A stretch of 64,000 nucleotides of DNA from a virus (IMGVR_UViG_3300037507_003370:64001-128000), one strand, 5' to 3'; positions 3,001-63,225 are shown, counted from the first letter of the stretch. Translations and numbers: made by a program. The notes: generated by a model from the letters alone, not told the origin.

Positions 3001-4899
3001 ATTGGACAGGGCTTTCGTAGGGCACTTGCTCCTGATGCTGATGGTAATTTAGTTCCAGCTATTGACGCTCAAGGCGGGCCGATTTACGAAAGTACCGCTG
3101 GGATGTTTTTAACATCAGATAAATTTGGATTTGCTGTTTGGGAACCTTTAGGAGGAGTATCGTCCACTAATGATACATTAACTTCTAATACGACTCCTAC
3201 TAGTAGTCAGATATTAACAGAAGGTGTTTTAGATAGAATCTCTAATGCTACTATAGAATTCGCATATGAAACAGATAATACAAATGATACAGCAAGGCTG
3301 TACAGAGATAATCTTAGTGTAAGAGACGAAAATCTTTTAAGTAATGCTGCACTAAAACTTAGAGGAGTAACAAGAAATAGTCTTTTATTTGCTAAAAATC
3401 CAAGACCAAACGCATACGATAATTATAATGGAACATTCAACGAATCTTCTGTGCCAACATCATCTAATGATATGAATATAGATGGTACAGAGAACCTATT
3501 CTATTATGGATATACTAATGCTCTAGAAGGAGTATTAACTTACAATACCTCTTCTAACACAACAGAAATAGTGGTAGACGGAGATGCTACCAGAAGAATT
3601 CAGAATGGAGATATTGTTAGATTACTTTATCGCTATCTTGATACCACAGGAACAACAGAACAAACAGTAAGTTCAATTATCAGAGCTAAAGTTATTGGAA
3701 TAAATATACAGTCTTCTCAGAAAGTAAATTTGACAGCAGATGATATTGGTGGTCCAAGAAGCTTTTTTAATAGGACACATATTATACTGGATAAAAAAGT
3801 AGATAACGTAGTATCTGAAACATATAATTTAGATAGGAATAGCGCATTTAGAAGAGCCGCGATTATATCTGAAACAGTAGGTGGCTACTTAACATTTAAT
3901 TTCCCAGGATCTTCTCCGGACATTGTATTAAGCAATAGACCAAATATAGATACTGAATTTAATCTTAATGGCAAAAAGATAGGATTTAGTGTTTATGGAG
4001 ATCAATCAAGTCCAAAAATTAATTTAGATAAAATAACAAACACAGTATTGCTAAATACAGATAAAGCAAAATCATACGGAAAAGTCACAAAGGTAACATC
4101 ACCACTAACTGCTGAAGACGAAAGAAATATTGATAGCGATCTTTATTATGATTATGGATGGAATGATGATTATATCATAGGTCAAATCTCTACAGTAAGC
4201 AACAAAACAGTAATTAGCACATCTGTAACTTTAACAGATAAAATTAATATCGGAGATATATTAGAAGTTGTATATGATACATATCAAAAAATAAATATGT
4301 ATGTATTATCAATTGATGGTCAAAAAGTATCATTATCTATTAGTATGTTAAGCTATGGGTTAATAGATGATGTAATTGGTAACCTAGCTAGAGATAATAG
4401 TGGAAATATTATAAACAATAATGTCAAATTTAAGATTGTAAAAAGACAATTGCCAAAAGTTACTGTTGCTAACAAGGTTATAGGGTCTGGTTTAATTCCA
4501 GTATATGCCGACGTTGGAGTGAATGGAATATTGCATACTGAAATGGCGATTATAGAAAATCTACCACAATTTAGTGGAGTTAATCGCATACCATATAGCA
4601 ATTTTGGTCTTTTAACACCTTCTAATCTTGGCTTTGTAGACTATAAAGACATATCTACAAATAAAACCTCTTCTTATTTAGTTAATAATACAATTTTGCC
4701 AGATATTATAGATACTAAAATAGCCAATATCAATGGACAAAATAAAAAATTGCCAATTTTAGCTGACACTACTCTTGCAGGAAATGTAAAGATTAATAAT
4801 TTGCATGTTGATAATTTTAATCATTTTAATACTATAGACTGTGGAATCGTTGTTTTTAGAGGGAAATGCGATAAATTAAAAGTTGTTTGTGATGATTGA
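1..4899 (+). CDS. Tail fibre-like protein, 5'-partial (>1632 aa)
   Basis: Frame 1 is open from base 1 (NPGTQFTRIN...), so the TTG at 223 is internal. Has YadA-head-like repeats (NSVAIGFNN, DTIAIGNS), GFVGINNPTPSVDLDIKG, G..L.S...G...W linkers and repeated FN...DF.V.G modules typical of phage fibres. Ends in TGA. Confidence 0.7.
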   Translation, partial: NPGTQFTRINSTLQELEYYKNNDIIDISGETQSASGIIKLVYFNQDTSTLTIETVSAIPGISTANIKSRTQQEKLIEFGSKPIQIIGNKNTAIGISGINLGSSNYSSGNRIFIHGNDNEVFGNDIISIGNGIYVSGAINAISIGENKGNLTNSVAIGFNNSIYGNDTIAIGNSNKSININDVIGKDNIAAQSNISVLGSGNQITYRSQRQTALPVSYDLYNRPNIPTRLDTSHIIASGYYSAESQDFFTTNIIRFSILDRAIIQFYHDEKYIGSYTGLVTNSPPSAGSTSTSVSFDRRSQSASASDLDANPITLYEYITSIFPDVTPSRITGFLSFVSNDSDGSVIGNENTIVGTSKISVVGSNNQFNVDSYNTQTTSSGLIVGDNNKVFNELAMTASSIQNKYINANPVFQGAVGFNIRNADPNSIKFGFDTNTIKIFDLSGRSDTKITSVIDPNISPPQTETFYAEQIGISGYARRGIVFNADNIQNNFYVLNNSSTKDPVLTVVSSGTGFVGINNPTPSVDLDIKGTFVADTGTTKYFRSTNITMSSGAKQGYFLSSVNNAGDMEWVGGVKIDVSGIPGTLLYFSGIAGAGGKVEPISTQITQPNGNFLLNFVTYEPSGSTISKSGLVFDQYYNIDKYAIMTLDEHRRAVLGYPIEETRDLTTVNPGKIDYIQRLKDLAKANNKTDEAHYIPRQYNAIYFIPESAQYLGSIDPAQIADNYKLSLTKAGQAKESVFAIGRRKIDYSQPTNLDRGEDVDANNPFFPGGLSAPQVIISTIPKKDQFGSNSWRAPRYKYNLEELYSPHLAPYYDDFNGPGIGDKYDIIKPMTGDNLTGKDYQSWWYYDTTRTSEDAGSRPKFNTVGLTYRVYATQKRSVATAFNLGLEEIDFVIYGTGTKHRNSAGIPDKPSKFIFGGDQEYMDWVSTGLGSDIADRPFLTKVPAFYFNSSISSFMIHTDRPSWIPFKLPADVCEPCDPIQSGIQFADLTVRGWIGTSGIRIGQGFRRALAPDADGNLVPAIDAQGGPIYESTAGMFLTSDKFGFAVWEPLGGVSSTNDTLTSNTTPTSSQILTEGVLDRISNATIEFAYETDNTNDTARLYRDNLSVRDENLLSNAALKLRGVTRNSLLFAKNPRPNAYDNYNGTFNESSVPTSSNDMNIDGTENLFYYGYTNALEGVLTYNTSSNTTEIVVDGDATRRIQNGDIVRLLYRYLDTTGTTEQTVSSIIRAKVIGINIQSSQKVNLTADDIGGPRSFFNRTHIILDKKVDNVVSETYNLDRNSAFRRAAIISETVGGYLTFNFPGSSPDIVLSNRPNIDTEFNLNGKKIGFSVYGDQSSPKINLDKITNTVLLNTDKAKSYGKVTKVTSPLTAEDERNIDSDLYYDYGWNDDYIIGQISTVSNKTVISTSVTLTDKINIGDILEVVYDTYQKINMYVLSIDGQKVSLSISMLSYGLIDDVIGNLARDNSGNIINNNVKFKIVKRQLPKVTVANKVIGSGLIPVYADVGVNGILHTEMAIIENLPQFSGVNRIPYSNFGLLTPSNLGFVDYKDISTNKTSSYLVNNTILPDIIDTKIANINGQNKKLPILADTTLAGNVKINNLHVDNFNHFNTIDCGIVVFRGKCDKLKVVCDD

Positions 4900-49476: not shown

Positions 49477-50371
49477 AATCGACCACCGTGTTGTTAGCGA
49501 GTGAAAATATCTCTGAGATATCAGATATAAAATTATGGTTATTTAAAATATTCTTATTTTTTTCTATATTCATTTTTCTAATAATTTGATCGTACTGAGT
49601 ATTTAATTGAGAAAACATTGACAATATAGAAGCTGTATCCGGAGTAAAAAATATACTCTGGTTATTAGAAGAGTTTTGATGAGGGGTTAAAGAGACAGCC
49701 CCAAAAAAATTTGCATATAAATAATTTGTGAACTTATGTTCATCAATATGTAGTATCATTTTAGCAGATTTGATCTTGTTCATTAAAGGATCATCAGAAT
49801 AATCAGAGCAATGATCGACATTCAATCCTTCTTTTTTTAGTTCGTTGATAATTGATTTAATCATTTCCGGATCCGTATCACTGTGCAGAACTAAAACATC
49901 AATATTCTTATTTAACTGCAACAGATCTACTTGTCCGAAAACCTGATCCAAATTAGGTATAGAATGAAATACATTTGGATGACCAATAGACTTTATTCCT
50001 TTATATGTTTCATTGTCTAAACATAATATGTATTCATATTTAGATATAGCTTTTTTAACAGCTTCATTCAAGTTCACAATTCTACCTTCAATAATTAAAA
50101 TCGTTGACACGCCATCTATCGATTTATCTCTTTCGTTATCAGATCCTAATGTTACATTAAAATTATAACCCAAATCATTACTTGATGGACCTATGTAGCA
50201 ACCATCCATTTTTGCTGGCCCCGACTTAATAGTAAATGAGTGGTTTGATTTTTCACAAATTAAGCTGAATAAATGATCAAAACATCCTCCAATAGCATTA
50301 TATGCTATATGATAAGAGTCTTTATAGCTACATCTTCTTATTGCATTTTTTACACTATATCCAATAAACAT
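49469..50371 (-). CDS. Glycosyltransferase-like protein (GT-B/CgeB-like, divergent)
   Basis: KNIDVLVL...IINELKKEGL.V......L..KIKSAKMIL....ANFFGAV.L resembles the GT-B C-terminal half. Confidence 0.45.
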   Translation of the reverse strand: MFIGYSVKNAIRRCSYKDSYHIAYNAIGGCFDHLFSLICEKSNHSFTIKSGPAKMDGCYIGPSSNDLGYNFNVTLGSDNERDKSIDGVSTILIIEGRIVNLNEAVKKAISKYEYILCLDNETYKGIKSIGHPNVFHSIPNLDQVFGQVDLLQLNKNIDVLVLHSDTDPEMIKSIINELKKEGLNVDHCSDYSDDPLMNKIKSAKMILHIDEHKFTNYLYANFFGAVSLTPHQNSSNNQSIFFTPDTASILSMFSQLNTQYDQIIRKMNIEKNKNILNNHNFISDISEIFSLANNTVVDYA

Positions 50372-51510
50372 AATTTTTTCCCTACTTCTTGATAGCTGAA
50401 TTGATTGGTCATTAGTTTTGATTGATCTGATTTATATTTTAATAATTCTTTATTGGTTTTATAAATCTCTATTGCGTTTCTTATGGTCTGTCTGATACTT
50501 AAAACAGAAGGACTCATACCCACCTCATATTCTGAATCATGATCTAGAAGTCCATTACCAGAATATTCTACTTGTTCTTCTATTGCTGGTATAATAAAAC
50601 CATTATCATTATTCACGTAATCTGTTGGTCCTGTATTTTCTACACATATTGGAATATTTCCAAATCTCATAGACTCAGCTAGTGGTCTACAAAAAGCTTC
50701 TCCTTTAGATGGACATACGAATATATCACAGTAATAGTGTAATTTTAAGATATCATATCTGCTGATATTTTCTGTAATCAGAAGCACTTTACTACCCAGC
50801 CCTTTATGAAATCTCAATGTAGATAATTCTTTTTCTAAAGATTTGATAAAAGAATCTTTTTTCTCGTCTGGAATATGAGAAGTTTTAATTACCAAAACAA
50901 CTTTTTCTCTTTCCATTATTTCTGACCTAAAAGCCTTAATCAAATTAATGATATTTTTTCTTTTAATAAAAGTACCAATAAAGTATAACTTGATATAATC
51001 TTTATATTTTGTATTTAATCCTACAAAATCCCTATTGTCTGTTTCTATAACAGATATCGCGCTATCTATTTCTTCACACGGTATTACTTGAGATATTGTA
51101 TGTATTGGTTTATGAACACCTGAGTCTACTAATGCTCTTTTTTCTATAGAGCTTGGTACACATATTTTATCAAGCTGATTAAGTGGTTGTATTATTCCAT
51201 AATTTTTGGTTAAATTATTAACTTCAAATACATTTATGCCGACATTAGAAGATGTTTTGTCGGTATAGATTGCTTGAGGAAGCACTTTTTGTATGATAGT
51301 ATCAAATTTTGTAATTGTCTCTGATTCTAGAATCCTAACATATTCTGGTATGTTTTGAGCAATTTCTTGAGAAAAGTATACTGGGTGAATTTTTAAACTA
51401 TAGTTTTTTTCATTACAAGCATATATTATAGAGTTAAGATATCCTAGAGAAGCATTTCCCCAGCCATCATTTTGCCTATATGGAGCTATGTACAAAATAT
51501 TTTTAGACAT
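50350..51510 (-). CDS. Family 4 (GT-B) glycosyltransferase
   Basis: LYFIGTFIKRKNIINLIKAF...CDIFVCPSKGEAFCRPLAESMRFG...TGPTDYV. Start set at ATG 51510 (MSKNILYIAPY). Confidence 0.85.
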   Translation of the reverse strand: MSKNILYIAPYRQNDGWGNASLGYLNSIIYACNEKNYSLKIHPVYFSQEIAQNIPEYVRILESETITKFDTIIQKVLPQAIYTDKTSSNVGINVFEVNNLTKNYGIIQPLNQLDKICVPSSIEKRALVDSGVHKPIHTISQVIPCEEIDSAISVIETDNRDFVGLNTKYKDYIKLYFIGTFIKRKNIINLIKAFRSEIMEREKVVLVIKTSHIPDEKKDSFIKSLEKELSTLRFHKGLGSKVLLITENISRYDILKLHYYCDIFVCPSKGEAFCRPLAESMRFGNIPICVENTGPTDYVNNDNGFIIPAIEEQVEYSGNGLLDHDSEYEVGMSPSVLSIRQTIRNAIEIYKTNKELLKYKSDQSKLMTNQFSYQEVGKKLCLLDIV

Positions 51511-53182
51511 TATTTTTTGTCCTGTCATTGGCGTAATTAATAAAATCTTCTGTTTTAACAGCATCTGGATTAGCCAAAGCATATTTAGTTAAATTACGAT
51601 TCTCTATATTTTTATTTAAGAAATTAATCATATCTTCAAAATGATAAGGCTTTGTATTTGTGAATCCTTCTATGATAAATCCATAATCACTATGTTTTAA
51701 TAGGGATAGATTTCTCATATTATATATATCTTCTTCATTTAGATTATTATAGCAAACATGCTTGAAAGCATTGAAAGACTGGTTAAAGTTAGAACTTAAA
51801 TTTTTATAATCTATAGGTTTTTTATAGTAAGCATTATTAGATCCTGTCCATGATTTTTTTGTAGGTTGGAGCATTAATGAATCAAAAACAGACTCCCATA
51901 AATTAGCAGCATTATCCCAGGTGTATTTATTTTCTGTTAATTCTCTAGTTAGTTTAGATTTTTGTTGTTTTTCTTCGTTAGACATGCTAAAAAATTCGAA
52001 TAAAGTTTTAACTAAAATTCCATTATTTGGATAGCATCTAAATGCTTCTGTTTCTAATTCCTTAAAATATCTATCGGGAGGAATGCTAAAAGCATTTAAG
52101 TTTTTTATAATATCTGTCATAGCGCTATAATCAACAGATGCTAAAGGAATACCACAAGCGGCAGCTTCAACTTGTGGCATTCCAAAACCTTCACATATAG
52201 CATATTGAACATAAATATCGAATACGTTATATATTAGAGATAGTTGTTCAGACGAAACACCGTCTGTAACCGCTGGGAATACTGCACTTTTTTGTTTGCA
52301 ATATGGGCAATACTTAACTACATGATTGAAAGTATGGGCATGTATTCCACGGCATTTTTTACAAAAATATGTAAATAATACTCTTTTTGCAACTTCGTTT
52401 TCTTTTAGTAGCGCCGGTATATTCCACCCAGCATCAGGATACGTTGTATGCACATACAAGTACAAATCCTTACCATCTGCAGAATTATTTTTTTGATAAG
52501 TATTAAGTAAAATCCTAAAGCTTTGGAAAAGATCTGGTAGTAGTTTCCTTTTTTGATTACGCATTACGGTGCCAATAATACGAGCATCAGTATTAATCCC
52601 CAACTGTTTCCTAGCAAGATTTTTTTCTATGGGCTTAAATATATCTAGATCTACTCCAGGAGAAGCAGATCCGCAATATTTAATAAGGTTATTTGTTTGT
52701 TCAGATAAAACATGACCTCCCCATTCGCTATAGGACAAAACAGCATCTGCATCCATATAAACATCAAGCCATTCTTCTTGTTGTGGATAAGAGTCAACAG
52801 TTGGCATAACAGCCCATCTATAATAGGGCCTTAGTGGAGAGTATCTCTGGTATGAATTCATCCAAAAATCTCTTATATCAAAAACTATATCTGGCTTAAA
52901 GTCGTATACAACCCTATCAAATCTCCATTTACCAAAAGCATTTTCTCCAGAACTTGAATATTCTTGAAATCTTGGATCTTCTTGATTGACAGCATTTGGA
53001 TAATATCTCCATGGTATTTCCTGATCTCTTGGATCTCCAGGCATGCCATAAGATGCAAATTCTGCTATCTCATATTTGTTTTTTGCATAGAGTCTTTTAA
53101 GAATTTCTCTAGCATATACAGAATAGCCAGAACTTAAAAAGCTGGCTTCAGAACACATTAAAATTTTTGGTTTGGTTGTCAT
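51503..53182 (-). CDS. Family 4 (GT-B) glycosyltransferase with CxxC...CxxC insertion
   Basis: GTVMRNQKRK..PDL...YNVFDIYVQYAICEGFGMPQVEAAACG.P...VDYSAM. Start set at ATG 53182. Confidence 0.88.
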   Translation of the reverse strand: MTTKPKILMCSEASFLSSGYSVYAREILKRLYAKNKYEIAEFASYGMPGDPRDQEIPWRYYPNAVNQEDPRFQEYSSSGENAFGKWRFDRVVYDFKPDIVFDIRDFWMNSYQRYSPLRPYYRWAVMPTVDSYPQQEEWLDVYMDADAVLSYSEWGGHVLSEQTNNLIKYCGSASPGVDLDIFKPIEKNLARKQLGINTDARIIGTVMRNQKRKLLPDLFQSFRILLNTYQKNNSADGKDLYLYVHTTYPDAGWNIPALLKENEVAKRVLFTYFCKKCRGIHAHTFNHVVKYCPYCKQKSAVFPAVTDGVSSEQLSLIYNVFDIYVQYAICEGFGMPQVEAAACGIPLASVDYSAMTDIIKNLNAFSIPPDRYFKELETEAFRCYPNNGILVKTLFEFFSMSNEEKQQKSKLTRELTENKYTWDNAANLWESVFDSLMLQPTKKSWTGSNNAYYKKPIDYKNLSSNFNQSFNAFKHVCYNNLNEEDIYNMRNLSLLKHSDYGFIIEGFTNTKPYHFEDMINFLNKNIENRNLTKYALANPDAVKTEDFINYANDRTKNNV

Positions 53183-53209
53183 AGATAGAATTTTTATTTT
53201 AGTAAACAA

Positions 53210-53238
53210 TATGGTCCACGCTCTTAACATGGACCATA
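53210..53238 (-). terminator. Probable intrinsic terminator downstream of ssb
   Basis: On the minus strand UAUGGUCCAUG-UUAAGAG-CGUGGACCAUA forms an 11-bp stem with one G-U pair, followed by UUGUUU. Confidence 0.6.
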
Positions 53239-53251
53239 CTGCTTACATTAT

Positions 53252-53620
53252 TCAGAAACTAACGGCTTCTGCTTGTTCTGATGGCTTCTTAGAAACTTTC
53301 GTTATCTTGGAAAAATTATTTACTCTAACCTTAAGAGTATTGTGCTTAACTCCATCCTTTTCCCAAGCATCGTTTCTTAGAGTGCCTTCTACTAATACTA
53401 AGTCGCCCTTTTTAAACGACGAAGCAATAATTTCTGCCCCACTATCCCAAGCTTCGCAAGAAATAAATGAGGTAATCTTATCCTTATTGCCATTTGCCCT
53501 ACTAAATTCCTTTGAAACAGCAACTGTAAAATTAACTACAGATGTCTGCTTATCTCCAGACCCTACTGTTCTAATCTCAGGATCTCTAGTTAGATTACCA
53601 CGCAAAATTACAAGATTCAT
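53252..53620 (-). CDS. ssb: Single-stranded DNA-binding protein
   Basis: MNLVILRGNLTRDPEIR...VVNFTVAV...FISCEAW...KKGDLVLVEG.LR...W. AAGGAG SD 7 nt before ATG at 53620. Confidence 0.95.
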   Translation of the reverse strand: MNLVILRGNLTRDPEIRTVGSGDKQTSVVNFTVAVSKEFSRANGNKDKITSFISCEAWDSGAEIIASSFKKGDLVLVEGTLRNDAWEKDGVKHNTLKVRVNNFSKITKVSKKPSEQAEAVSF

Positions 53621-53657
53621 AATCAATCTCCTTTTAAAGGGTCAAAAACTCTATACT

Positions 53658-53685
53658 ATTGTATCAGATGACACGAGTGTGTCAA
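53658..53685 (-). promoter_or_regulatory. Sigma70-type promoter for ssb (TTGACA-N16-TACAAT, extended -10) with overlapping inverted repeat TGACAC-N4-GTGTCA
   Basis: Minus strand reads TTGACA CACTCGTGTCATCTGA TACAAT. The -35 box overlaps the dnaE-C stop codon. Palindrome at 53669-53684. Confidence 0.7.
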
Positions 53686-55292
53686 GTACTCGGCTCAAAA
53701 CATTTTTCTACAACGAATCCTTCACGACCATTTGTCAATTTATTGCCAATAAATACTAAAACTCTTTCTTCTTTTACTATATCAGAATACTTTTCATATT
53801 GTTCTGGAAATAGTATAACAGAATCAACCGTACCTGTTCCATCAAAGATTTCGATAAAGGACATTTCTGCTCCTTTATTTTTTCCTGTTTTAGTTTTGAC
53901 AATATTAACTCTGCCAATTTCTCCAATAATGGCTATTTTTTTACTATGGATACTATTTTTATAATCTTTACAGGTTACAATATTAAAATTACTCATATCA
54001 TAACAATCTGTTTTACTATAAGATATAGTTGTGCCAAGATAAAAAGACTCCATCTCTGTTATCCACTCCATAGTATCTTCTAAGCTATATGGAGGATTAA
54101 CTAAGCTTTTAATATATCCTTCTATAATAGTTTTTCTATTTTTGTTAATTTTATGGTTATTTAATAAAAAGGTTAATATAGATTCTAGTGTAGTAAACTT
54201 TTCGAATTCACAATTTTTTTCTATAAATTCGCATTCTTTTTTAGTTAAGTTAGTAATTATATCAAGATAAAATAACATTTCTTTTCTTGTTGATTTGAAC
54301 TCATCTAAACATCCACATGAAACTATAGCCTTTGCGGCCGAAATATTTATACGATTTAATAACAAGAATGCAACAGAAAACTTATTGGTGAATATATTTT
54401 TATCACATTTAGTTAGATTGTCCTGAATGCTGTTATAGACCGAATCTCCAACACCTTTAATATTAGTAATTCCAAAATATATTATATCATTAATTAATGA
54501 AAAGTCTTTCTTTGCGATAGATAAGTTTGGTATTCTAATATCTATATCCATTTCTATAGCATTTCTAACTAATTCTTTGATTTCCTGTTGAGGATCTATT
54601 TTATCTTTTGCAAACTTTAAATAAGATGTGAAAAATATTTTTGGAAAATGAGCCTTCGCATATGCTGATAAAAAACCATTAATAGCATAGCTTACAGCAT
54701 GGCTTTTATTAAAAGAATATCTTTGAGATTTTTCTATCCATCCAAATATTTGATCAGCTTCTTCTGAATTAACTATGTTATCTTTTATGCATCCTGATAA
54801 GAAGATTTTCTTAATTTTTGCCATTTCTTCTGGCTTTTTCTTTCCTATCGCTTTTCTTAACATGTCTGCTTCTTTGAGATCAAATCCGGCTATCGCTCTA
54901 GCTATTTGCATAGCTTGTTCTTGATAAATCATTTCGCCATAAGTGGATTTTAGAGAATCTTCTAATGCTGGATGGAAGTAATCTACGCTTTCCTTACCAT
55001 TTTTCTTATCTATAAAATGATCAGAAACGCTTTTATTATCTCTAATAGCCTCAAGACATCCTGGCCTCATAATACTAATTAAGGCAGACAGTTGTTCTAT
55101 ATTTTCTGGCTTCAATTTTTTGGCCATAGACTGACCAAGTCTAGATTCAAGCTGAAAACAGCCCTTAGTATTACCAGATCCAATTAATTCCCATGTCTTT
55201 TTACAGTTGAGATCGATATTTTCTGGTATAAACTTAATTCCGCTATCGTCTGCGGGGAATTTGCATCCGCATTCAAACGCAAGATACTTCAT
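53682..55292 (-). CDS. dnaE: DNA polymerase III alpha, C-terminal subunit (fingers, HhH, OB fold)
   Basis: GCFQLES, RPGCLE, TYGEMIYQEQAMQIA, ADMLRKAIGKK, YSFNKSHAVSY, GITNIKGVG, OB fold ending in VILFPEQY. Confidence 0.93.
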   Translation of the reverse strand: MKYLAFECGCKFPADDSGIKFIPENIDLNCKKTWELIGSGNTKGCFQLESRLGQSMAKKLKPENIEQLSALISIMRPGCLEAIRDNKSVSDHFIDKKNGKESVDYFHPALEDSLKSTYGEMIYQEQAMQIARAIAGFDLKEADMLRKAIGKKKPEEMAKIKKIFLSGCIKDNIVNSEEADQIFGWIEKSQRYSFNKSHAVSYAINGFLSAYAKAHFPKIFFTSYLKFAKDKIDPQQEIKELVRNAIEMDIDIRIPNLSIAKKDFSLINDIIYFGITNIKGVGDSVYNSIQDNLTKCDKNIFTNKFSVAFLLLNRINISAAKAIVSCGCLDEFKSTRKEMLFYLDIITNLTKKECEFIEKNCEFEKFTTLESILTFLLNNHKINKNRKTIIEGYIKSLVNPPYSLEDTMEWITEMESFYLGTTISYSKTDCYDMSNFNIVTCKDYKNSIHSKKIAIIGEIGRVNIVKTKTGKNKGAEMSFIEIFDGTGTVDSVILFPEQYEKYSDIVKEERVLVFIGNKLTNGREGFVVEKCFEPST

Positions 55293-55984
55293 GATTCTGT
55301 ATTTTTAAAAGACCCTTCGAATTTGATTTGCGGAGCTAGTCTTCTATGTAACTTCAAAAATCTTATCAATATTTCAGCACAATCTTTTACGTCTTTTAAA
55401 GCGTCGTGTGCTCCGTCTTTGGATATTCCAAGATATGATCGCAGATTATCCAGAGATATGCTTTTTATATCTTTATTATTTTCAAGCCAATAATAAGCTA
55501 AATTCATTATGTCTAATGTATCTCTGGGATAAAATAAGTCACACTCTCCATCTTTAGTGACATATCCAAACTTTTTTGTATATCTATCAACAATTTTAAG
55601 ATCAAATTTAAATATATTATATCCGGCAGTTACAGGAGCAGAAAACATATTTTTTTTTGTTCTATTTATATGGTAAAGCTCTAAATAGCTTTTGAACATT
55701 GACCAAGCCTGAGATTGACTAATAGAATTTTTCCATAAGTCTAAAATGTCAGATGCTTGGCATTTTTTTACTTTGGCATGAAAATCCAATATATCAGATT
55801 CTGCATAATCAAAATCTGGATTATCTTCTAACTTAGATGGTTTAACTTGGATATTAAATTCAGAGTCATCTATTATAGAAAGATCATAAGGGTCTATCAT
55901 GATTGCAGCAATTTGGACAGGACTGCATGAGGTTGGGTCTGATCCGTCGGTTTCGAAATCAAAAACGCATATTTTGTTTTTCAT
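55289..55984 (-). CDS. DnaQ-like DEDDh 3'-5' exonuclease (epsilon-like proofreader)
   Basis: ExoI VFDFETDG, ExoII GYNIFKFD, ExoIII HDALKD. ATGA-coupled to dnaE-C. Confidence 0.9.
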   Translation of the reverse strand: MKNKICVFDFETDGSDPTSCSPVQIAAIMIDPYDLSIIDDSEFNIQVKPSKLEDNPDFDYAESDILDFHAKVKKCQASDILDLWKNSISQSQAWSMFKSYLELYHINRTKKNMFSAPVTAGYNIFKFDLKIVDRYTKKFGYVTKDGECDLFYPRDTLDIMNLAYYWLENNKDIKSISLDNLRSYLGISKDGAHDALKDVKDCAEILIRFLKLHRRLAPQIKFEGSFKNTES

Positions 55985-58359
55985 AATGTCCTAAAAGGCA
56001 TATTTTCTATAGCCGTAGAAATGTTAAAAAGATTGTTAAAATAAATAGATGGTCCAATTACTGGACCGCAGGACCAAGGTGGTATTTCATAAGGTACGCA
56101 CCCTATCTTATAGTTGAAACTGAATGGTCTGTCAAGGGTTATTTTTGTGAGCGTTTGCTCTTTTATATAGTCCATCGAAACGATATTTAAAGACGCAAAA
56201 ACCTTTTCATAACGACGTATATCTGTATCTGTCGGTAATAATTGTTTCTTAGGAATCCAATATTCAATTTTTGTTGCACCTCTTTTAAATCTTGGAACAA
56301 AATTTCCAGACATAAATAAATATCTCAGATCCGTCCTGTCTGTAAAACAAGCAATTTTTTTATATGGTAACCAATTCCATAAGCCGTTATAAGATATAAA
56401 AGGAAAATTATCAGAATATGTTGTTATAAATTGTGGAGATCTATACCATTCATCTAATGATGTTGTCTCATCTCCGGTTTTAACTACCGGAATACCGTCA
56501 GCATCTAGATATGTTTGGTTAGCTAGTTTTGAATTGATAATAGTTCTGAATTTTTTGAAAGATTCTAGTGCTATAGGATACGGATCGTTTTTGACAGAGA
56601 GGTAAAGTTCTTCTAAGTCTATTTTATAGAAACCAAAAAATTTTGTTGTTTCCTCAGGATCTGTATCAGCATCCAAAAAATATTCAATCAATTGTTTTCC
56701 GTATATGCCAAGATCAAAGCTTTCTTTTTGGGTTGTTGAATCTATGCATGACCCGGGCCATCTAATGTCGTAACGCGCATTATTGCATGGTGGAGAGCTT
56801 TTATTAGGGTCTTGCGGAGATATTTTAGAATACGGATCAATGATCATCTGGTCAAAACTTGACTTTCCTCCAGAAATATAAAATCTAATTAAGTAAGGAT
56901 CTGTAATATAGTGATTTTCTATTAAAATATTATTTTGTTCATCGCAAGGAATGCCGTTAACCCCAGGCTGAGAAAGACTATTATCTTTAATTGTATCGTC
57001 TGGTTCTGGCATTGGTTTATAAAATTTTTCATAAACCTTGTCATCTTTTTCTACTTCCCGAATGTCCTTAACTGTATCAGTATATAGATATGGTTGAGTT
57101 TTTCTATGCCAAATATATGGTTTTTGTGTTTTAGGATTAAGTTTAAAAAAGTAAACAGGAGCAGATCTATTAAATCCATTAGATCTATCTTGATTAATAG
57201 GATCTGGATTGTAGTATTGTCCTTCTAATAGAGTATATTTTTTCTTATTTAAAAAATACTTAGGGAAAATATCATTTTTAGAAAATATTTCTTTAACACT
57301 TAATTTTTGTACTTGTGTTTTGATATTAAAAAGCTGTGTCAGATCTTCATCAAAAAATAATGCATCATATAATATAACATCTAATAAATTAGTTGTTTCT
57401 GTTATCATATATAATCCTCGAAGAGACCAAGGATCTATATTTACGTCAGAAAAAAGAGTAGAACCACTATGAGAACTATACAAATAAAAATTAGTACCAT
57501 ACTGTTCTAGTGCGGTAAATCTTTTTGCAATCGTACATTCGGATGCAAATGTGCCTCTATTTTTTTCTAAAATATTAGATACTGATATAGAACCTGGAAC
57601 TTCATATAATTCTTCTTCTGGAATCACGCTTAAAAGATCTCTATATGTTGCATGAAGACACAGTGCGTTGATCCTACAGCACCCGGCGTCTTTTTGGAAA
57701 GTTCTGATTTTTTTATATAGAACCCTATCTCTGTTATTTGGCTGTACTAATGTGAACACATCTCCAATTTGAAGAGATTCGAAGGTAGTAAATTCTTGTG
57801 GAAATAAATCTCCTGACCAGTCAGCATAAAAGTAAGATCCCCCACTTAATCTACCAAGAATAGTTTTTGGGCCGGCATTAATAGTAAGCCATTTATCTGA
57901 GTTTCTATTGTTTATATACAGAGGCTCTAGCTTTCTATAAACTGTTACAGACTCATCTGCAAAGTTTTGAAAGGTTCCTATTCCATATGCTCTGTCGCTA
58001 GTAGCATATATTGTACTAAAATAGTATCCAGCATTTATTGTTGTTTTTTTAATATCAAAAGATACAGGAATATCTATTTTTTTAGGAGATGTTATAAATT
58101 TAACACTTGATGGTTCTGCAACTTGTCCTTCTATGTTCGAACCCCAAACCCAAAACGTGCCATTTTCTTTCAATGCTACAGAGTGTGTCAGACCCATCCT
58201 TGCTTGAATCCAAGGAGAGCTATCGTTAGTACTATTTGTTAAAACCTCGTACTCTTTTCCTGCCTCTACTGGTCTATTGTGACCTAGTCCTAACTGACCA
58301 TGTCCATTATCCCCATATGCATACAATTTACCTTCAACAATCTTGATAACATGAGCCAT
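55981..58359 (-). CDS. RCC1/BLIP-II-repeat protein (792 aa) with an internal copy of the neighbouring small-protein domain
   Basis: LYAYGDNGHGQLGLG...MGLTHSVALKENGTFWVWGSNIEGQV...AGYYFS. C-terminal part not recognised. Confidence 0.75.
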   Translation of the reverse strand: MAHVIKIVEGKLYAYGDNGHGQLGLGHNRPVEAGKEYEVLTNSTNDSSPWIQARMGLTHSVALKENGTFWVWGSNIEGQVAEPSSVKFITSPKKIDIPVSFDIKKTTINAGYYFSTIYATSDRAYGIGTFQNFADESVTVYRKLEPLYINNRNSDKWLTINAGPKTILGRLSGGSYFYADWSGDLFPQEFTTFESLQIGDVFTLVQPNNRDRVLYKKIRTFQKDAGCCRINALCLHATYRDLLSVIPEEELYEVPGSISVSNILEKNRGTFASECTIAKRFTALEQYGTNFYLYSSHSGSTLFSDVNIDPWSLRGLYMITETTNLLDVILYDALFFDEDLTQLFNIKTQVQKLSVKEIFSKNDIFPKYFLNKKKYTLLEGQYYNPDPINQDRSNGFNRSAPVYFFKLNPKTQKPYIWHRKTQPYLYTDTVKDIREVEKDDKVYEKFYKPMPEPDDTIKDNSLSQPGVNGIPCDEQNNILIENHYITDPYLIRFYISGGKSSFDQMIIDPYSKISPQDPNKSSPPCNNARYDIRWPGSCIDSTTQKESFDLGIYGKQLIEYFLDADTDPEETTKFFGFYKIDLEELYLSVKNDPYPIALESFKKFRTIINSKLANQTYLDADGIPVVKTGDETTSLDEWYRSPQFITTYSDNFPFISYNGLWNWLPYKKIACFTDRTDLRYLFMSGNFVPRFKRGATKIEYWIPKKQLLPTDTDIRRYEKVFASLNIVSMDYIKEQTLTKITLDRPFSFNYKIGCVPYEIPPWSCGPVIGPSIYFNNLFNISTAIENMPFRTL

Positions 58360-58389
58360 GGTCCTTCCTTTAATCCTTTGATTTTATTT

Positions 58390-58578
58390 TTAACTATTGA
58401 TATTTTTAATTTCTACAACAGTATCATCTGACATAAAGTTTTGTTCATTGTTGCTAACTTTGACACAATTTATTGCTCTGCAACAGGAAACTCTTACTGT
58501 CTCTGTTTTTCTGTATGTTTCTCCACCAAAAGAAAAAACAGTATTTACGACTAAGTCTCTAAAAGCAGCGGTTGACAT
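58390..58578 (-). CDS. Small SH3-like/beta-barrel hypothetical protein with CC motif (62 aa)
   Basis: FRDL...VFSFGGETYRK...SCCRAINC. Fills the gap after dnaE-N and is homologous to a segment of the next gene. Confidence 0.75.
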   Translation of the reverse strand: MSTAAFRDLVVNTVFSFGGETYRKTETVRVSCCRAINCVKVSNNEQNFMSDDTVVEIKNINS

Positions 58579-58582
58579 AGTT

Positions 58583-60424
58583 TTACTCCGTAGTTAATAA
58601 TGACTGAATACACATAATTTTATCTAACATACCAATACCAAGTATATCAAATTTAACAATACCCAGGGCTTCCAAATCTTGCATTTCCATACCCGCGATA
58701 TTGGTACCCGTTTTAGTATCATACACCATAGGACAAACTTCATTTAAGTTATTGGCTGAAATAGCTATTCCTGCAGCATGTTTAGATTGATTGCATTTCG
58801 TTCCTTCTAATCTAATAGCTTGTTCAAATCTTTTTGCAAACATGCCGGATATGTTATTATCTTTATCTATTTTTACCCAATCCTTGAATTTATCTGGCGT
58901 ATTTTCTAGTGCCCACATAATTATAGAAGATTCTCCTGTTTCTTCTTTCATCTCTTGGAGATCATCAGCTATTTTAGCCTCATCTGGTATATTTTTAGTA
59001 ATTTGATTCATTTCATCAAAAGACAATCCTCCATATACTCTTAGGACTTCTTTTAAGGCTCCTCGTCCTTTCATAGTATTGAATGTAATCATTTGAGAAA
59101 CTCTGTTTTCTCCATATTTATTTTTTATATAGGATATGATTTCATCTCTTTTTGTCATTGGAACGTCTATGTCTATATCTGGCATAGAAATTCTATTTTC
59201 TGTATTACGTCCAGCATTATAAAATCTTTCAAACAGAAGATCATATTGTATTGGATTGATATTTGTTATCCCTAACAAATAAGAGACTAAACATCCAGCA
59301 GCACTGCCTCTTCCTGGTCCTGGCAACCATGAATTTTCTTTTACATATTTTACTATATCTTGGATTATTAAGAAATATCCAGATAAGTTAGCCCCTTGTA
59401 AAACCTCTAGTTCTTTTTTAATTCTTTCAACATATATATTTTTGTCTGATTCTGACAATGAATTTAGATCTCTATCTCTCCAGCCGTTTCTGCATAGTTG
59501 TCTTAAATACTCGTCTTCGTTTTCTATTACTTCGGGTAGTGTTGGCTTGTCTAATATATTATAATCTTCACACATTGAATCTATTAATAGAGTATTGTCT
59601 ATTTCAGATTCTGTATGTATTTTATTCATTTCTTCTCCGGATAATATATAGTAATTATCGGATTTGAAGAAAGCTCCCAAAGGAACCGCTTCGTCATTTA
59701 AAAGCTTTTTATTTATATCTTTAAATGTAGACTTAAGATTATTGCACAATAAAACCCTCTGATCTATAGCGTCTTCTTTATTTGCATAATGAGCATCATT
59801 TGTTGCAACAACTTTGATTTTTAATTTGTTAGATAAGTCTCTTATCATATCTGTTATAACTTTTTGTTCAGGACTATACTCTAGATCCATAAGCTGAGAT
59901 TCTAGAAATAAGTTGTCTCTGCCAAAAAGATCAATAAGATTATTAGCATGAAGTTTAGCCTGATTCATGTCTTCTTGCAATAAGCAATTATGCATGGTTG
60001 ACCCCATGTGTCCTGTGATACATATGAGTCCCGAAAGATCCATATCGGAGAGGTTCTGAATTGAGATCCTAGGCTTTCTATAAAAGTAGTCTGGCCTGTT
60101 GGTCTCAGAAACTAAACGAACTAAATTTTTCCATCCTGTATGGTTTTTGGCCAATACCAACATATGTTTCAGTTGTTGATTATCTTTGTTTTTTATTTTA
60201 GCATCATATTCGGATATATATAGCTCACACCCTAATATTGGTTTAATTTTTTTGGATTTTAGTGCTTGGTAAAAAGATACGCAGCCAGAAATTGTTCCAT
60301 GGTCTGTTATAGCACAAGACTTTGCTCCTATTGATAAACATCTATTTGCTATTTGTTCTGGCTTTGATAATCCGTCCAATAAAGAATAGTGACTATGAAC
60401 ATGCAAGGGTATATAATTTTTCAT
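58583..60424 (-). CDS. dnaE: DNA polymerase III alpha, N-terminal subunit (PHP, palm, thumb)
   Basis: LHVHSHYSLLDG, ITDHG, GCELY, TNDAHY, GPGRGSAAG, LLFERF, MPDIDID, KHAAG, KFDILG. Confidence 0.95.
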   Translation of the reverse strand: MKNYIPLHVHSHYSLLDGLSKPEQIANRCLSIGAKSCAITDHGTISGCVSFYQALKSKKIKPILGCELYISEYDAKIKNKDNQQLKHMLVLAKNHTGWKNLVRLVSETNRPDYFYRKPRISIQNLSDMDLSGLICITGHMGSTMHNCLLQEDMNQAKLHANNLIDLFGRDNLFLESQLMDLEYSPEQKVITDMIRDLSNKLKIKVVATNDAHYANKEDAIDQRVLLCNNLKSTFKDINKKLLNDEAVPLGAFFKSDNYYILSGEEMNKIHTESEIDNTLLIDSMCEDYNILDKPTLPEVIENEDEYLRQLCRNGWRDRDLNSLSESDKNIYVERIKKELEVLQGANLSGYFLIIQDIVKYVKENSWLPGPGRGSAAGCLVSYLLGITNINPIQYDLLFERFYNAGRNTENRISMPDIDIDVPMTKRDEIISYIKNKYGENRVSQMITFNTMKGRGALKEVLRVYGGLSFDEMNQITKNIPDEAKIADDLQEMKEETGESSIIMWALENTPDKFKDWVKIDKDNNISGMFAKRFEQAIRLEGTKCNQSKHAAGIAISANNLNEVCPMVYDTKTGTNIAGMEMQDLEALGIVKFDILGIGMLDKIMCIQSLLTTE

Positions 60425-61467
60425 TCTATGCTTCCTGGAGCTTTGTACTTTCCTACACTATAACCAGGAATCGTGTATTCGTCAACAACTGCATTCATAC
60501 CTTTTAGCTCTATGTCGTGTTTAACTTGCTCACACTTTGTCATAAATTGATTTTTTGCAATAAGCTGTCCATCTCTATACTCTATTGTGGGAAGAACGTG
60601 AGTGTTATCAAAATTACTTTTTCCAAAGTGACATAACTTACTACACATCCATGTTTTATTTAATCTAGGTTTTTTTGTATTTTTAATAACTTCAAATTTT
60701 TCTCTTAGCATACTTTCTGTTTTATAAATATCAGAACTATCAAATGTCATAGAAAAAGGACCGCCATCATTTATAAAAAATATCGTTATAATTATATGTT
60801 TAATTTCTGGATATAGTTTTTGTACAGCATAGAAGTATATCATTAATTGAGGATCTGTTTCTAGCTTAGACTGTGTTTTTTCTTCTCCTGTTGCCCAATT
60901 AAGTCTTTTTCCTGTTTTCCAGTCTATAATTTCTATGGTATCTTCTCCAACTTTTGTGATCAGGTCTATCGTTCCTTTTATAGCCAAATTTCCTTTTAGT
61001 GAATCTCCATTATTTAATTTATATGAATATTCTGCCCACTTTTTATCTATAGATATGTCGAATCTTTGTTCTGGACAAAGTATTTGTCTATTTCTTGGAT
61101 CAAAAAGACCGGAGCCATAATTTATTGCTTTATATACCCAGTCTCTACAATCAGAAAAATCTTTGTTAGACCATTTGTGATGAGAGAATTGTTCGCTGTA
61201 ATACTTGTATACAGATTCGATGATCTTGTCTAAATCATAATTATTTGTTAAAATTTCTCCAACTATTTCATCATTGCATGTTTTTTCGTTATTCTGCATC
61301 GCCTGTTTAATAACAGCTAAAATTTCTAATACTTTATGTACTATAGTGCCCTTATCTGCTTTTTGATTAGACGGACCTCTCCATCCTAAAACATATTCGA
61401 AAAAATATTGTTGCTCACACATACAATGAGTATTATACGACGAGCTGCGAAAATATGTAATTATAAT
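60421..61467 (-). CDS. PD-(D/E)XK exonuclease (RecB/AddB/Cas4-like), probable ATT/ATA start
   Basis: GTIVHKVLE, PEQRF, KGTIDLI, IIDWKTG, QLMIY, terminal C-x3-C...C. The in-frame upstream YFRSSSYNTHCMC motif has no ATG/GTG/TTG before it, and an AAGGA SD precedes ATT at 61467. Confidence 0.85.
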   Translation of the reverse strand: MIITYFRSSSYNTHCMCEQQYFFEYVLGWRGPSNQKADKGTIVHKVLEILAVIKQAMQNNEKTCNDEIVGEILTNNYDLDKIIESVYKYYSEQFSHHKWSNKDFSDCRDWVYKAINYGSGLFDPRNRQILCPEQRFDISIDKKWAEYSYKLNNGDSLKGNLAIKGTIDLITKVGEDTIEIIDWKTGKRLNWATGEEKTQSKLETDPQLMIYFYAVQKLYPEIKHIIITIFFINDGGPFSMTFDSSDIYKTESMLREKFEVIKNTKKPRLNKTWMCSKLCHFGKSNFDNTHVLPTIEYRDGQLIAKNQFMTKCEQVKHDIELKGMNAVVDEYTIPGYSVGKYKAPGSIE

Positions 61468-62063
61468 AGTATTATTCCTTTATTTTTGAGAAATTCTATA
61501 ATTTGATTATTTTGTTCATCTATATTCAGATTCTGATTATCAATAATTAAATCAAAATTATTTTGATCATATTGATCCGGATCTAATGCCATCTCACTAG
61601 CATGAAAAGAATTATAAGGATTTCTCGTCAGCTTAATAACAAAACCTCTAGCTTTTTTAACTGTATCAACTTCATTAGGAAATCTACAATCGGCAATTAT
61701 AGCCATATCTAAATTTTCTTTATTAATACGTCTAACTATAGCGTCAGACCAAACACTTTGTTTCATTCGTCTAAAAATATCTGTGCCAACAATTTGCATA
61801 ACTTCTCTAGCAGACAATTGGCGATTTTCCCAATAACAATCTACTAACTCATTTTTTTTAATATCCGATCCATAGCATTGTTCATAGGTCAAACCAAGTA
61901 TATCAATACATATATTTTGTTTCAATGGATCAGCAAAATTATATATAGCAATACTATTTTCAATAGTATGCTTATTGTATACAGATTGAACAAATTCGGA
62001 ACAAGTAGTTTTACCCGACTGTTTCCTTCCAGCAAATGCTATTATTTTAGTTTTAGTCATCAT
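61461..62063 (-). CDS. Deoxynucleoside monophosphate kinase (T4 gp1-like)
   Basis: IIAFAGRKQSGKTT, FADPLK, SAREVMQIVGT, IADCRFPNE. Confidence 0.9.
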   Translation of the reverse strand: MMTKTKIIAFAGRKQSGKTTCSEFVQSVYNKHTIENSIAIYNFADPLKQNICIDILGLTYEQCYGSDIKKNELVDCYWENRQLSAREVMQIVGTDIFRRMKQSVWSDAIVRRINKENLDMAIIADCRFPNEVDTVKKARGFVIKLTRNPYNSFHASEMALDPDQYDQNNFDLIIDNQNLNIDEQNNQIIEFLKNKGIILL

Positions 62064-63225
62064 ATATATTAGTTATATTTTTAAGGTTATCTATTATTAT
62101 AGAACAATCAGTGTCAGCTATGTCTGTTGTTACGAAATTAGGAACATGAATATTATAGGTTTTTTTGCATTTTTCAATTATTTTTTTAGTAGCTTCTATA
62201 CCAGCGGCATCATTGTCTAATAAGAGTATTAGTTCCATAGCGCCAGAAGTGTCTAAAATCATTTTTTGTCTATCGCTCATAGAGGAGCCAAATATGGCTA
62301 CGCTATTTCTTATTCCGCATTCTTCAAGCTTCCATACATTTCCAGGACTTTCTACAATGATAGCAACTTTAGTTTCTTTGATATAATGTTTGGCAAACCA
62401 GTAATTGTACAGATGGTTCTGTGCCTGAAACCCTGTATTATGTTTCCATTTTGGATATTTCCATCTATCTTCTACTCTAGGACATTGTTCTTCTGATGAA
62501 TGATAAGAATTACAGCTGTCGCATTTCTCAAAAATACTTCTACCAGAACATCCTGTCATGAATTTATAGTTATCATCATATATTGGTACAACTATTCTAT
62601 TATACATTTCTTTGTCTGATTTGTTACATAATCCAACATCGTATTTATTCAATACGGTATTGTTAAATCCTCTAGATAAAAAATATTCCGCTGGCATAAT
62701 TAGACTTTTTCTAATATTATGTCTAGATATTTTTTGATCATAAATATTTTGTACTGGTTTGATCGAATTTACTAATCCGGCAAATATAGCCTTGTCTCTA
62801 TCTGTTTTAGATATCTTAATAGAATCAAAGTCTTTATCTAAAAATTGCATACCATATTTTAATGCTTCGTCGAAAGAACAAACCTTGTCTCCTTCTTTGA
62901 TCCAATCAAATTTTTTGTTGGATAAAACTCCGCGAATGAAACCTATGATTGATGATTTAAAATATTTTTCACATCCATGAGTTCTGCATTTCCAGTTTCC
63001 TCTGTAAACCTCTCCGTCAGGATACAAATTTAATGCTGACTTATTATCGCCACCATGAATTGGGCAACTCATAGTTATCATCTTACCAGTAGATTTGTAT
63101 TCTAAATCTAAACTATTCAATAAATCATCTATATTATCACATAAATGATCACAGACTAATTTTAGCTTAGCCTGATCATACGAATTCGATTTGGTCTTTT
63201 TCATTTTGGTTAGTGTCTGACTCAT
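62053..63225 (-). CDS. dnaG: DnaG-type DNA primase
   Basis: Zn finger CPIH...WKCRTHGC, RIVVPI...GCSGR, Toprim IIVESPGN and LLDNDAAG. Start could be 63225 or 63204. Confidence 0.88.
   Translation of the reverse strand: MSQTLTKMKKTKSNSYDQAKLKLVCDHLCDNIDDLLNSLDLEYKSTGKMITMSCPIHGGDNKSALNLYPDGEVYRGNWKCRTHGCEKYFKSSIIGFIRGVLSNKKFDWIKEGDKVCSFDEALKYGMQFLDKDFDSIKISKTDRDKAIFAGLVNSIKPVQNIYDQKISRHNIRKSLIMPAEYFLSRGFNNTVLNKYDVGLCNKSDKEMYNRIVVPIYDDNYKFMTGCSGRSIFEKCDSCNSYHSSEEQCPRVEDRWKYPKWKHNTGFQAQNHLYNYWFAKHYIKETKVAIIVESPGNVWKLEECGIRNSVAIFGSSMSDRQKMILDTSGAMELILLLDNDAAGIEATKKIIEKCKKTYNIHVPNFVTTDIADTDCSIIIDNLKNITNIYDD

Follow-up and report, generated by a model that had tools for sequence, protein, structure and literature searches.

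A DnaE-type polymerase predicted to act as two chains, encoded around a dnaQ-like gene in a clade of large uncultured phages

The 64,000-nt stretch of an uncultured virus analysed here (IMGVR_UViG_3300037507_003370:64001-128000, hereafter the window) carries a tightly packed replication operon on the minus strand between 53 and 64 kb (Table 1). In this operon the alpha subunit of DNA polymerase III (Pol III), a DnaE-type C-family polymerase, is encoded by two open reading frames (ORFs), dnaE-N with the PHP, palm and thumb domains, and dnaE-C with the fingers, helix-hairpin-helix (HhH) and OB domains. Both ORFs lie exactly where the original prediction had placed them. The 3,290 nt between them are filled by three ORFs on the same strand, which encode a small conserved protein named S, a protein of 792 amino acids with RCC1-like repeats, and a dnaQ-like exonuclease. 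Stop/start overlaps of the ATGA type can be read directly at 55289-55292 (dnaQ/dnaE-C), 55981-55984 (RCC1-like gene/dnaQ) and 60421-60424 (PD-(D/E)XK exonuclease gene/dnaE-N), the first of which agrees with the predicted coupling of dnaQ to dnaE-C.

dnaE-N has Pfam matches to the PHP domain (PF02811, E 1e-38, residues 7-177) and to Pol III alpha (PF07733, E 2.7e-73). dnaE-C matches the fingers (PF17657, E 4e-48) and HHH_6 (31.9 bits, over the cut-off), and has a weak OB match (20.7 bits, under the cut-off of 27). The phage DnaE profile phrog_405 is covered from 41 to 611 by dnaE-N and from 619 to 1055 by dnaE-C, so the profile is cut cleanly and no part of it is missing. The combined length of the two products (613+536 = 1149 amino acids) compares with 1124-1146 amino acids in the closest unsplit relatives. 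The window thus encodes a DnaE homologue in two chains from two ORFs, and not one with all domains on one polypeptide; no frameshift links the two ORFs.

The KFDILG motif lies at residues 591-596 of dnaE-N, 17 residues ahead of the stop, and GCFQLES at residues 44-50 of dnaE-C, each near the break as had been claimed. In alignments with alpha subunits of solved structure, residue 600 of dnaE-N corresponds to residue 625 of Thermus aquaticus (Taq) alpha and to residue 588 of Mycobacterium tuberculosis DnaE1, and on the other side residues 15, 17 and 26 of dnaE-C correspond to Taq 637, M. tuberculosis 602 and E. coli 589, respectively. By these alignments the break maps to the palm/fingers boundary, with the third catalytic Asp only a few residues before it, in agreement with the original prediction; the domain limits used for this boundary are those reportedly given by Lamers and co-workers in 2006. 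The site at which the cyanobacterial DnaE intein is found is intact in dnaE-C, reading YSFNKSH at residues 192-198, also as predicted.

The three catalytic Asp residues of dnaE-N, D416, D418 and D593, are invariant in 31 aligned sequences, and the PHP metal-ligand positions are invariant or nearly so in the same alignment. The dnaE-C motifs RKAIGKKK and YSFNKSH are likewise invariant among the relatives. In the window, the PHP domain (59779-60424, minus strand) keeps residues at all nine of what we take to be the canonical metal-ligand positions (H8, H10, D17, H42, E67, H87, H139, D210 and H212), despite the presence of a DnaQ proofreader gene. Since the PHP ligands are kept and a DnaQ is encoded as well, the enzyme may have two exonuclease sites.

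dnaE-C begins with a novel head of about 17 extra residues of the form M..Y..F.CGC.FP, in which C8, G9 and C10 are at least 90% conserved. The head is missing from the unsplit relatives and from one split sub-clade (loci L008, L026, L045, L050, L052 and L069). In an AlphaFold2 (AF2) model of dnaE-C alone, head residues 2-15 form a beta-hairpin with a predicted local distance difference test score (pLDDT) of about 82, and residues 48-104, which pack against the palm in intact enzymes, are poorly modelled.

dnaQ encodes a DEDDh 3'-5' exonuclease by its matches to PF00929 (44.4 bits, with a cut-off of 24) and to phrog_192, and the DEDDh residues D9, E11, D128, H193 and D198 are invariant in the alignment. 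Its ORF overlaps the genes on either side by ATGA. This position and coupling suggest that DnaQ is the putative proofreader (epsilon) of the split polymerase.

S starts 4 nt past the dnaE-N stop. An ORF is found at the corresponding position in all 69 unique related loci; it encodes a Cys-Cys protein of 55-72 amino acids, with F15, C32, C33 and V55 invariant, and S is a real gene. It has no match in Pfam or PHROGs, and a search of the ESM Atlas returned unnamed viral clusters only. The AF2 model is an SH3-like five-stranded beta-barrel (mean pLDDT 92.7), for which the top Foldseek matches are to domain I of EF-P/eIF5A; these are weak (E about 1e-2, template modelling score 0.5-0.6) and describe a generic SH3-like or KOW-like barrel. 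S is not like theta (HOT family), with which it has no sequence match, and its beta-barrel differs from the helical fold of theta. All 73 clusters of S homologues, including the two most distant, which were checked, are found where dnaE-N, S, dnaQ and dnaE-C stand together (the N-S-Q-C context), and S therefore seems to be specific to the split module. A tblastn search of about 19 kb of each unsplit contig found no S homologue. When full-length dnaE-N, residues 1-277 of dnaE-C and S were modelled as a complex and S was scored as the partner, the interface score ipSAE was 0.00 in a run without controls, a value that speaks neither for nor against binding. A Cys4 site shared between the Cys-Cys pair of S and the CGC head of dnaE-C was also considered, and is weakened as a candidate by the head-less sub-clade, which retains the Cys-Cys pair.

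The RCC1-like gene has Pfam RCC1 and RCC1_2 matches to its N-terminal repeats. Orthologues are found only in L001 and L002, at 34-37% identity, and the other loci lack it; dnaE-N is 72-73% identical between the window and the same two loci. The gene is therefore lineage-specific cargo between S and dnaQ, and it accounts for the extra 2.4 kb of gap in the window. Three genes in a gap of about 3.3 kb had been predicted, and the count holds, but the three are not equivalent, as S and dnaQ are conserved and the RCC1-like gene is cargo.

Table 1. Genes of the minus-strand replication operon and its downstream flank, in window coordinates
Feature	Coordinates	Strand	Remarks
DnaB-like helicase	from 63985 down to 63176	-	First in transcription order of the replication operon
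Toprim primase	62053-63225	-	
Deoxynucleoside monophosphate (dNMP) kinase	61461-62063	-	
PD-(D/E)XK exonuclease, 333 aa	60421-61422	-	Upstream neighbour of dnaE-N; same neighbour in relatives
dnaE-N, 613 aa	58583-60424	-	PHP, palm and thumb
S, 62 aa	58390-58578	-	Small conserved ORF
RCC1-like protein, 792 aa	55981-58359	-	N-terminal repeats
dnaQ-like exonuclease, 231 aa	55289-55984	-	DEDDh family
dnaE-C, 536 aa	53682-55292	-	Fingers, HhH and OB
SSB	53252-53626	-	Directly downstream of dnaE-C; conserved flank in split and unsplit relatives
Two glycosyltransferases	50350-53230	-	Adjacent to each other; downstream of SSB

The same arrangement is widespread. Scans of IMG/VR returned more than 140 loci for dnaE-N and more than 240 for dnaE-C, at 55-73% identity, and each of the 146 loci with both halves has dnaE-N, dnaQ and dnaE-C in this order on one strand. 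The full module of dnaE-N, S, dnaQ and dnaE-C is present in 69 of 69 unique loci, with stops and starts that overlap or abut. A survey of synteny thus finds N-S-Q-C to be common to the related IMG/VR loci, and finds syntenic relatives with an unsplit DnaE as well. Because the identical break recurs in 146 of 146 loci from independent metagenomes, the split is not due to chance or to an assembly artefact, which had been named as one way in which the prediction could fail. A HMMER search of 1.84 billion cluster representatives (50% identity) gave the same picture, with 142 of the 149 top matches covering the N half only and having a common end point. In protein searches no deposited phage exceeded 34% identity.

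The distance between the end of dnaE-N and the start of dnaE-C is usually 846-921 nt; across lineages it ranges between 0.85 and 4.5 kb, and the cargo genes differ. The cargo lies between dnaQ and dnaE-C in L126, L156 and L133, and between dnaE-N and S in L137, so that the spaces within the module are insertion hotspots. The cargo genes of L126 (6358-9850) that were scanned encode an FkbM methyltransferase, ThyX, and a pilin-like protein of the DUF1559 type that has a prepilin N-methylation motif. DUF1559 proteins of the prepilin-motif type are expanded in Planctomycetota, and this gene is a possible hint to hosts in that phylum.

The clade comprises genomes of about 140-240 kb from freshwater and marine metagenomes and includes no cultured phage above 35% identity; the window itself probably belongs to a large tailed phage. 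CheckV rates three relatives as complete: two that have direct terminal repeats (243.8 and 237.9 kb) and one of 197 kb. Each has a single PF07733 match, which is the split N half, and a single gene of the RNase_T family, which is the embedded dnaQ. No PolA or PolB was detected in these three genomes, nor did the Pfam models for the HK97 capsid and the sheath match them. The median ratio of nonsynonymous to synonymous substitution (dN/dS, Nei-Gojobori) is 0.11 for dnaE-N, 0.17 for dnaQ, 0.21 for dnaE-C and 0.48 for S, values that are rough estimates since most pairs are near saturation. They point to purifying selection on both halves and on the conserved genes in the gap.

Taken together, dnaE-N and dnaE-C very probably encode a two-piece, non-covalent alpha subunit with an embedded epsilon, made from one coupled operon. 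The heterodimeric replicase of the original prediction is thereby supported on comparative grounds, namely the conserved break, the invariant residues, the purifying selection, the lack of another polymerase and the variable gap. Alpha-N would bring the PHP, palm and thumb domains with all three catalytic Asp residues, and alpha-C the fingers with the deoxynucleoside triphosphate (dNTP)-binding motifs, HhH and OB, and the two would assemble into a replicative C-family polymerase with no covalent joining. The break appears to be in a variable surface linker, just past the helix behind the KFD strand, so that the native palm-fingers interface could hold the halves together. The CGC beta-hairpin at the start of alpha-C, present in most lineages, may add to this interface, and S may do likewise. 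N, S, Q and C are placed in a single compact operon with translational coupling, and the parts should then arrive together and in similar amounts. It is from such comparisons that we infer the physical assembly, the polymerase activity, the proofreading by DnaQ, and the roles of S and the CGC head.

Several points weigh against a two-piece alpha. The binding and activity of the halves are deduced from comparison, not biochemistry, and the near saturation of the dN/dS pairs bears on the selection argument as well. No beta clamp (PF00712) was found in the relatives, and in principle the host Pol III would be available to the phage. Joining at the RNA or protein level by a mechanism that has not been described is also possible.

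In one alternative, the split gene is a relic in decay or put to a new use, the phage is replicated by a host polymerase, and the halves are inactive or in separate roles. The PF00712 search, in which neither a clamp nor a clamp-loader gene was detected in the relatives, would fit such a relic. It is nevertheless very unlikely, since the catalytic and dNTP-binding residues are invariant across sequences that are only about 55-65% identical, dN/dS is low, and the split form has been kept in more than 140 cluster representatives. The genomes also carry their own DnaB, primase and SSB and no other polymerase.

Ligation of the halves after translation, by trans-splicing of the proteins via a split intein in the manner of cyanobacterial DnaE or of the 'fractured genes', is more improbable still. 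DnaE often hosts inteins, fractured DnaE genes are known (PMC2677866), and in the relative L146 the N1 product has Hint and Intein_splicing matches at residues 380-460 and is accompanied by a free-standing nuclease. However, neither half in the window has a Hint or other intein match in Pfam, as had been predicted, and L146 served as the positive control in which Hint was found. The tail of dnaE-N is homologous to the unsplit relatives to its very end, and the genes between the halves include dnaQ and S and no homing endonuclease. On the other side of the break, dnaE-C has only about 17 extra residues and no HN motif; the Hint fold needs about 130 amino acids, and the extra residues are therefore far too few for an intein.

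Joining at the level of RNA or translation, by a group I or II intron, trans-splicing or a long-range ribosomal bypass over the gap, is about as improbable. In its favour, introns are frequent in phage polymerase genes, the annotation of Bacillus phage vB_BceM_WH1 gives dnaE as three pieces separated by non-coding gaps, and some relatives in the clade seem to have a short bypass at another place in dnaE-N. Against it, an Rfam search over 53000-61000 gave no match at E<=1, the gap consists of conserved same-strand protein genes under purifying selection with starts of their own, the ATG of dnaE-C overlaps the dnaQ stop, and the length and content of the gap differ by lineage, at odds with a spacer of fixed form for splicing or hopping.

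Some relatives have a second break within dnaE-N. In L146 (6038-9117) and L147 the gene is broken after residue 373, with a split intein (Hint) and a free-standing PD-(D/E)XK-like nuclease gene. In L101 (6117-9110) and L128 the break is after residue 419 or so and is followed by a LAGLIDADG gene, and the downstream piece has an extension of about 87 amino acids; this break could be an atypical split intein. The second breaks in both pairs of loci are of the kind that Dassa et al. described as 'fractured genes' (PMC2677866).

A different element, which resembles a translational bypass, occurs in 26 of about 154 related loci, where it lies at the 5' end of dnaE-N; these loci give 16 unique sequences (L068 at 4064-4132, L034, L055, L065, L070, L074, L076, L080, L096, L097, L098, L099, L110, L128, L129 and L137). 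It is missing from the window, where 60380-60424 is uninterrupted. The element begins as a mini-ORF of 11-15 codons that ends in PLHVHS, with TAA or TAG after the Ser codon (TCC or TCT). The next 8-12 nt are an insert, mostly not a multiple of three and ending in TCT or TCA (ACT in some), which leads directly into the codons for H-Y/F-S-LLDG. The start-codon region ATGGACGTG is paired with the HVH codons CACGTCCAT in a 9-bp stem that is intact in 15 of 15 sequences, with one pair altered on both sides in four of them and G-U changes at two other pairs. A hairpin of 5-8 bp reaches from the stop codon to the Y/F-S-L codons, and its arms vary by locus yet stay complementary. The element looks like a candidate programmed translational bypass with take-off and landing similar to gene 60, over a very short gap, in which a hop from the Ser take-off codon to the Ser-like landing codon would restore LHVHS-HYSLLDG. 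No report of such an element was found in the literature searched.

The closest longer homologues of dnaE-N are unsplit DnaE proteins of 48-53% identity. Their contigs are syntenic with the window, having DnaB, primase, dNMP kinase, PD-(D/E)XK, DnaE, SSB and glycosyltransferase genes. The dnaQ orthologue of the unsplit contigs has 34-37% identity and is located elsewhere than dnaE, either between two glycosyltransferase genes (L158:12860-16321 and the P0008 contig) or right after the PD-(D/E)XK gene (L157). These positions fit a relocation of dnaQ into or out of dnaE. In L157 (572-2539) the PD-(D/E)XK exonuclease has 655 amino acids and a LAGLIDADG_3 match, compared with 333 amino acids in the window, and the extra length probably comes from an intein or from fusion with a homing endonuclease.

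In a quick maximum-likelihood tree built from the N region, two unsplit clades fall within the split forms, with three changes. The approximately unbiased (AU) test does not reject the monophyly of the split form (p = 0.104). The history may therefore have been either one fission followed by two re-fusions, or one in which the unsplit forms are basal.

A fuller scheme, which is tentative and rather doubtful as a whole, would join these observations into a four-subunit phage Pol III core of alpha-N, S, epsilon and alpha-C. S and the CGC hairpin would be assembly elements specific to the split form, possibly forming one metal site, and assembly during translation would be programmed by the order of the genes, N, S, Q, C. 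A split of this kind might then be ancestral to a large radiation of 140-240-kb phages, with the unsplit forms arising by secondary re-fusions.

The closest mechanistic precedents for a two-piece alpha are two enzymes of T4-like phages, gp43 and NrdA, which are split without inteins. According to the accounts in PMC2988022 and PMC3045599, the family B polymerase is split into gp43A and gp43B in Aeromonas phages 25 and 44RR, and the phage 25 halves co-purify and are active (Petrov et al. 2010); the split NrdA of phage Aeh1 is active as well (Crona et al. 2011). As with gp43A/B and NrdA-a/b, two neighbouring genes on one strand, with no intein or intron, encode an enzyme that is essential for phage replication. 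In the accounts cited the gp43 and NrdA products reassemble non-covalently, as is proposed by analogy for the halves in the window, and in NrdA-a/b a new terminal tail has arisen at the break, as in the head of dnaE-C. Unlike gp43, the enzyme is of the C family and not the B family, and its break is at the palm/fingers boundary. The insert also differs from those of gp43 and NrdA, as it contains the putative proofreader and a conserved small protein in place of a homing endonuclease, and the arrangement is fixed across a very large clade where theirs occurs in few phages.

Cyanobacterial DnaE is likewise encoded by two genes, which are far apart and broken at Y|CFNKSH, and carry intein fragments that ligate the products covalently (Wu et al. 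1998 and Caspi et al. 2003, as described in PMC3919608 and PMC2677866). In the window this site is intact, no intein is present, and both genes are in a single operon. The 'fractured genes' combine a split intein with a free-standing homing endonuclease in environmental phage-like DNA, and include three DnaE loci (Dassa et al. 2009, PMC2677866). They share with the window an environmental phage DnaE in adjacent pieces with an intervening gene, and differ in that the N|C junction here lacks both Hint motifs and an endonuclease gene. As in the E. coli Pol III core (alpha, epsilon and theta), a C-family polymerase occurs together with a DEDDh exonuclease. PolC likewise has its exonuclease encoded within the polymerase gene, there as an in-frame domain inside the PHP, whereas in the window it is a separate gene at the palm/fingers break.

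Other phage dnaE genes in pieces, in the Microbacterium cluster EF phages (PMC7302621), in vB_BceM_WH1 and in PHROG 7513, 13169, 11165, 12219 and 21652, also have more than one coding sequence (CDS). Their breaks occur after the PHP or near palm residue 410 or so, and none has an embedded dnaQ; the fragments of PHROG 11165, 12219 and 21652 span the position of the window's junction. In vB_BceM_WH1 (LC597490.1; L162:3911-8109) dnaE consists of three CDSs (gp235-237) with about 0.7 and 0.4 kb unannotated between them, which is a different kind of interruption, possibly by introns. The surveys of C-family polymerases and of viral replication proteins that were consulted make no mention of the two-gene N-S-Q-C architecture.

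Elsewhere in the window, seven giant ORFs of 1,188-2,957 amino acids are on the opposite strand (1-44290, plus). Three of the seven have Pfam matches (fn3, RCC1, CotH kinase and FGE-sulfatase domains) and four have none, and a PHROGs search gave no match for five plus-strand ORFs tested, three of them giant. The giant ORFs presumably encode proteins of the virion or of host interaction. In the 792-amino-acid protein, the RCC1 repeats are weakly like those in the product of the 2,957-amino-acid giant ORF. Promoter and terminator scans gave counts not above those of shuffled sequence, and no tRNA was detected in the window.

What appears to be new here is a C-family replicase split at the palm/fingers boundary, which has the genes for a putative proofreader and for a novel small protein within the break and is fixed in a large clade of uncultured phages. 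If the two-chain reading is correct, this would be a natural and evolutionarily successful replicase, free of inteins, in the polymerase family that replicates bacterial chromosomes. The palm/fingers linker would then be a permissive break point, and the split module would offer a ready-made system for the study of domain assembly and movement in the polymerase, as well as a design hint for the engineering of split or modular Pol III alpha. With a proofreader embedded and a small protein conserved, the operon order would seem to serve the assembly of a multi-subunit core. The clade is also a hotspot for elements that interrupt one essential gene, whether split inteins, homing endonucleases, cargo genes or a short candidate ribosomal bypass.

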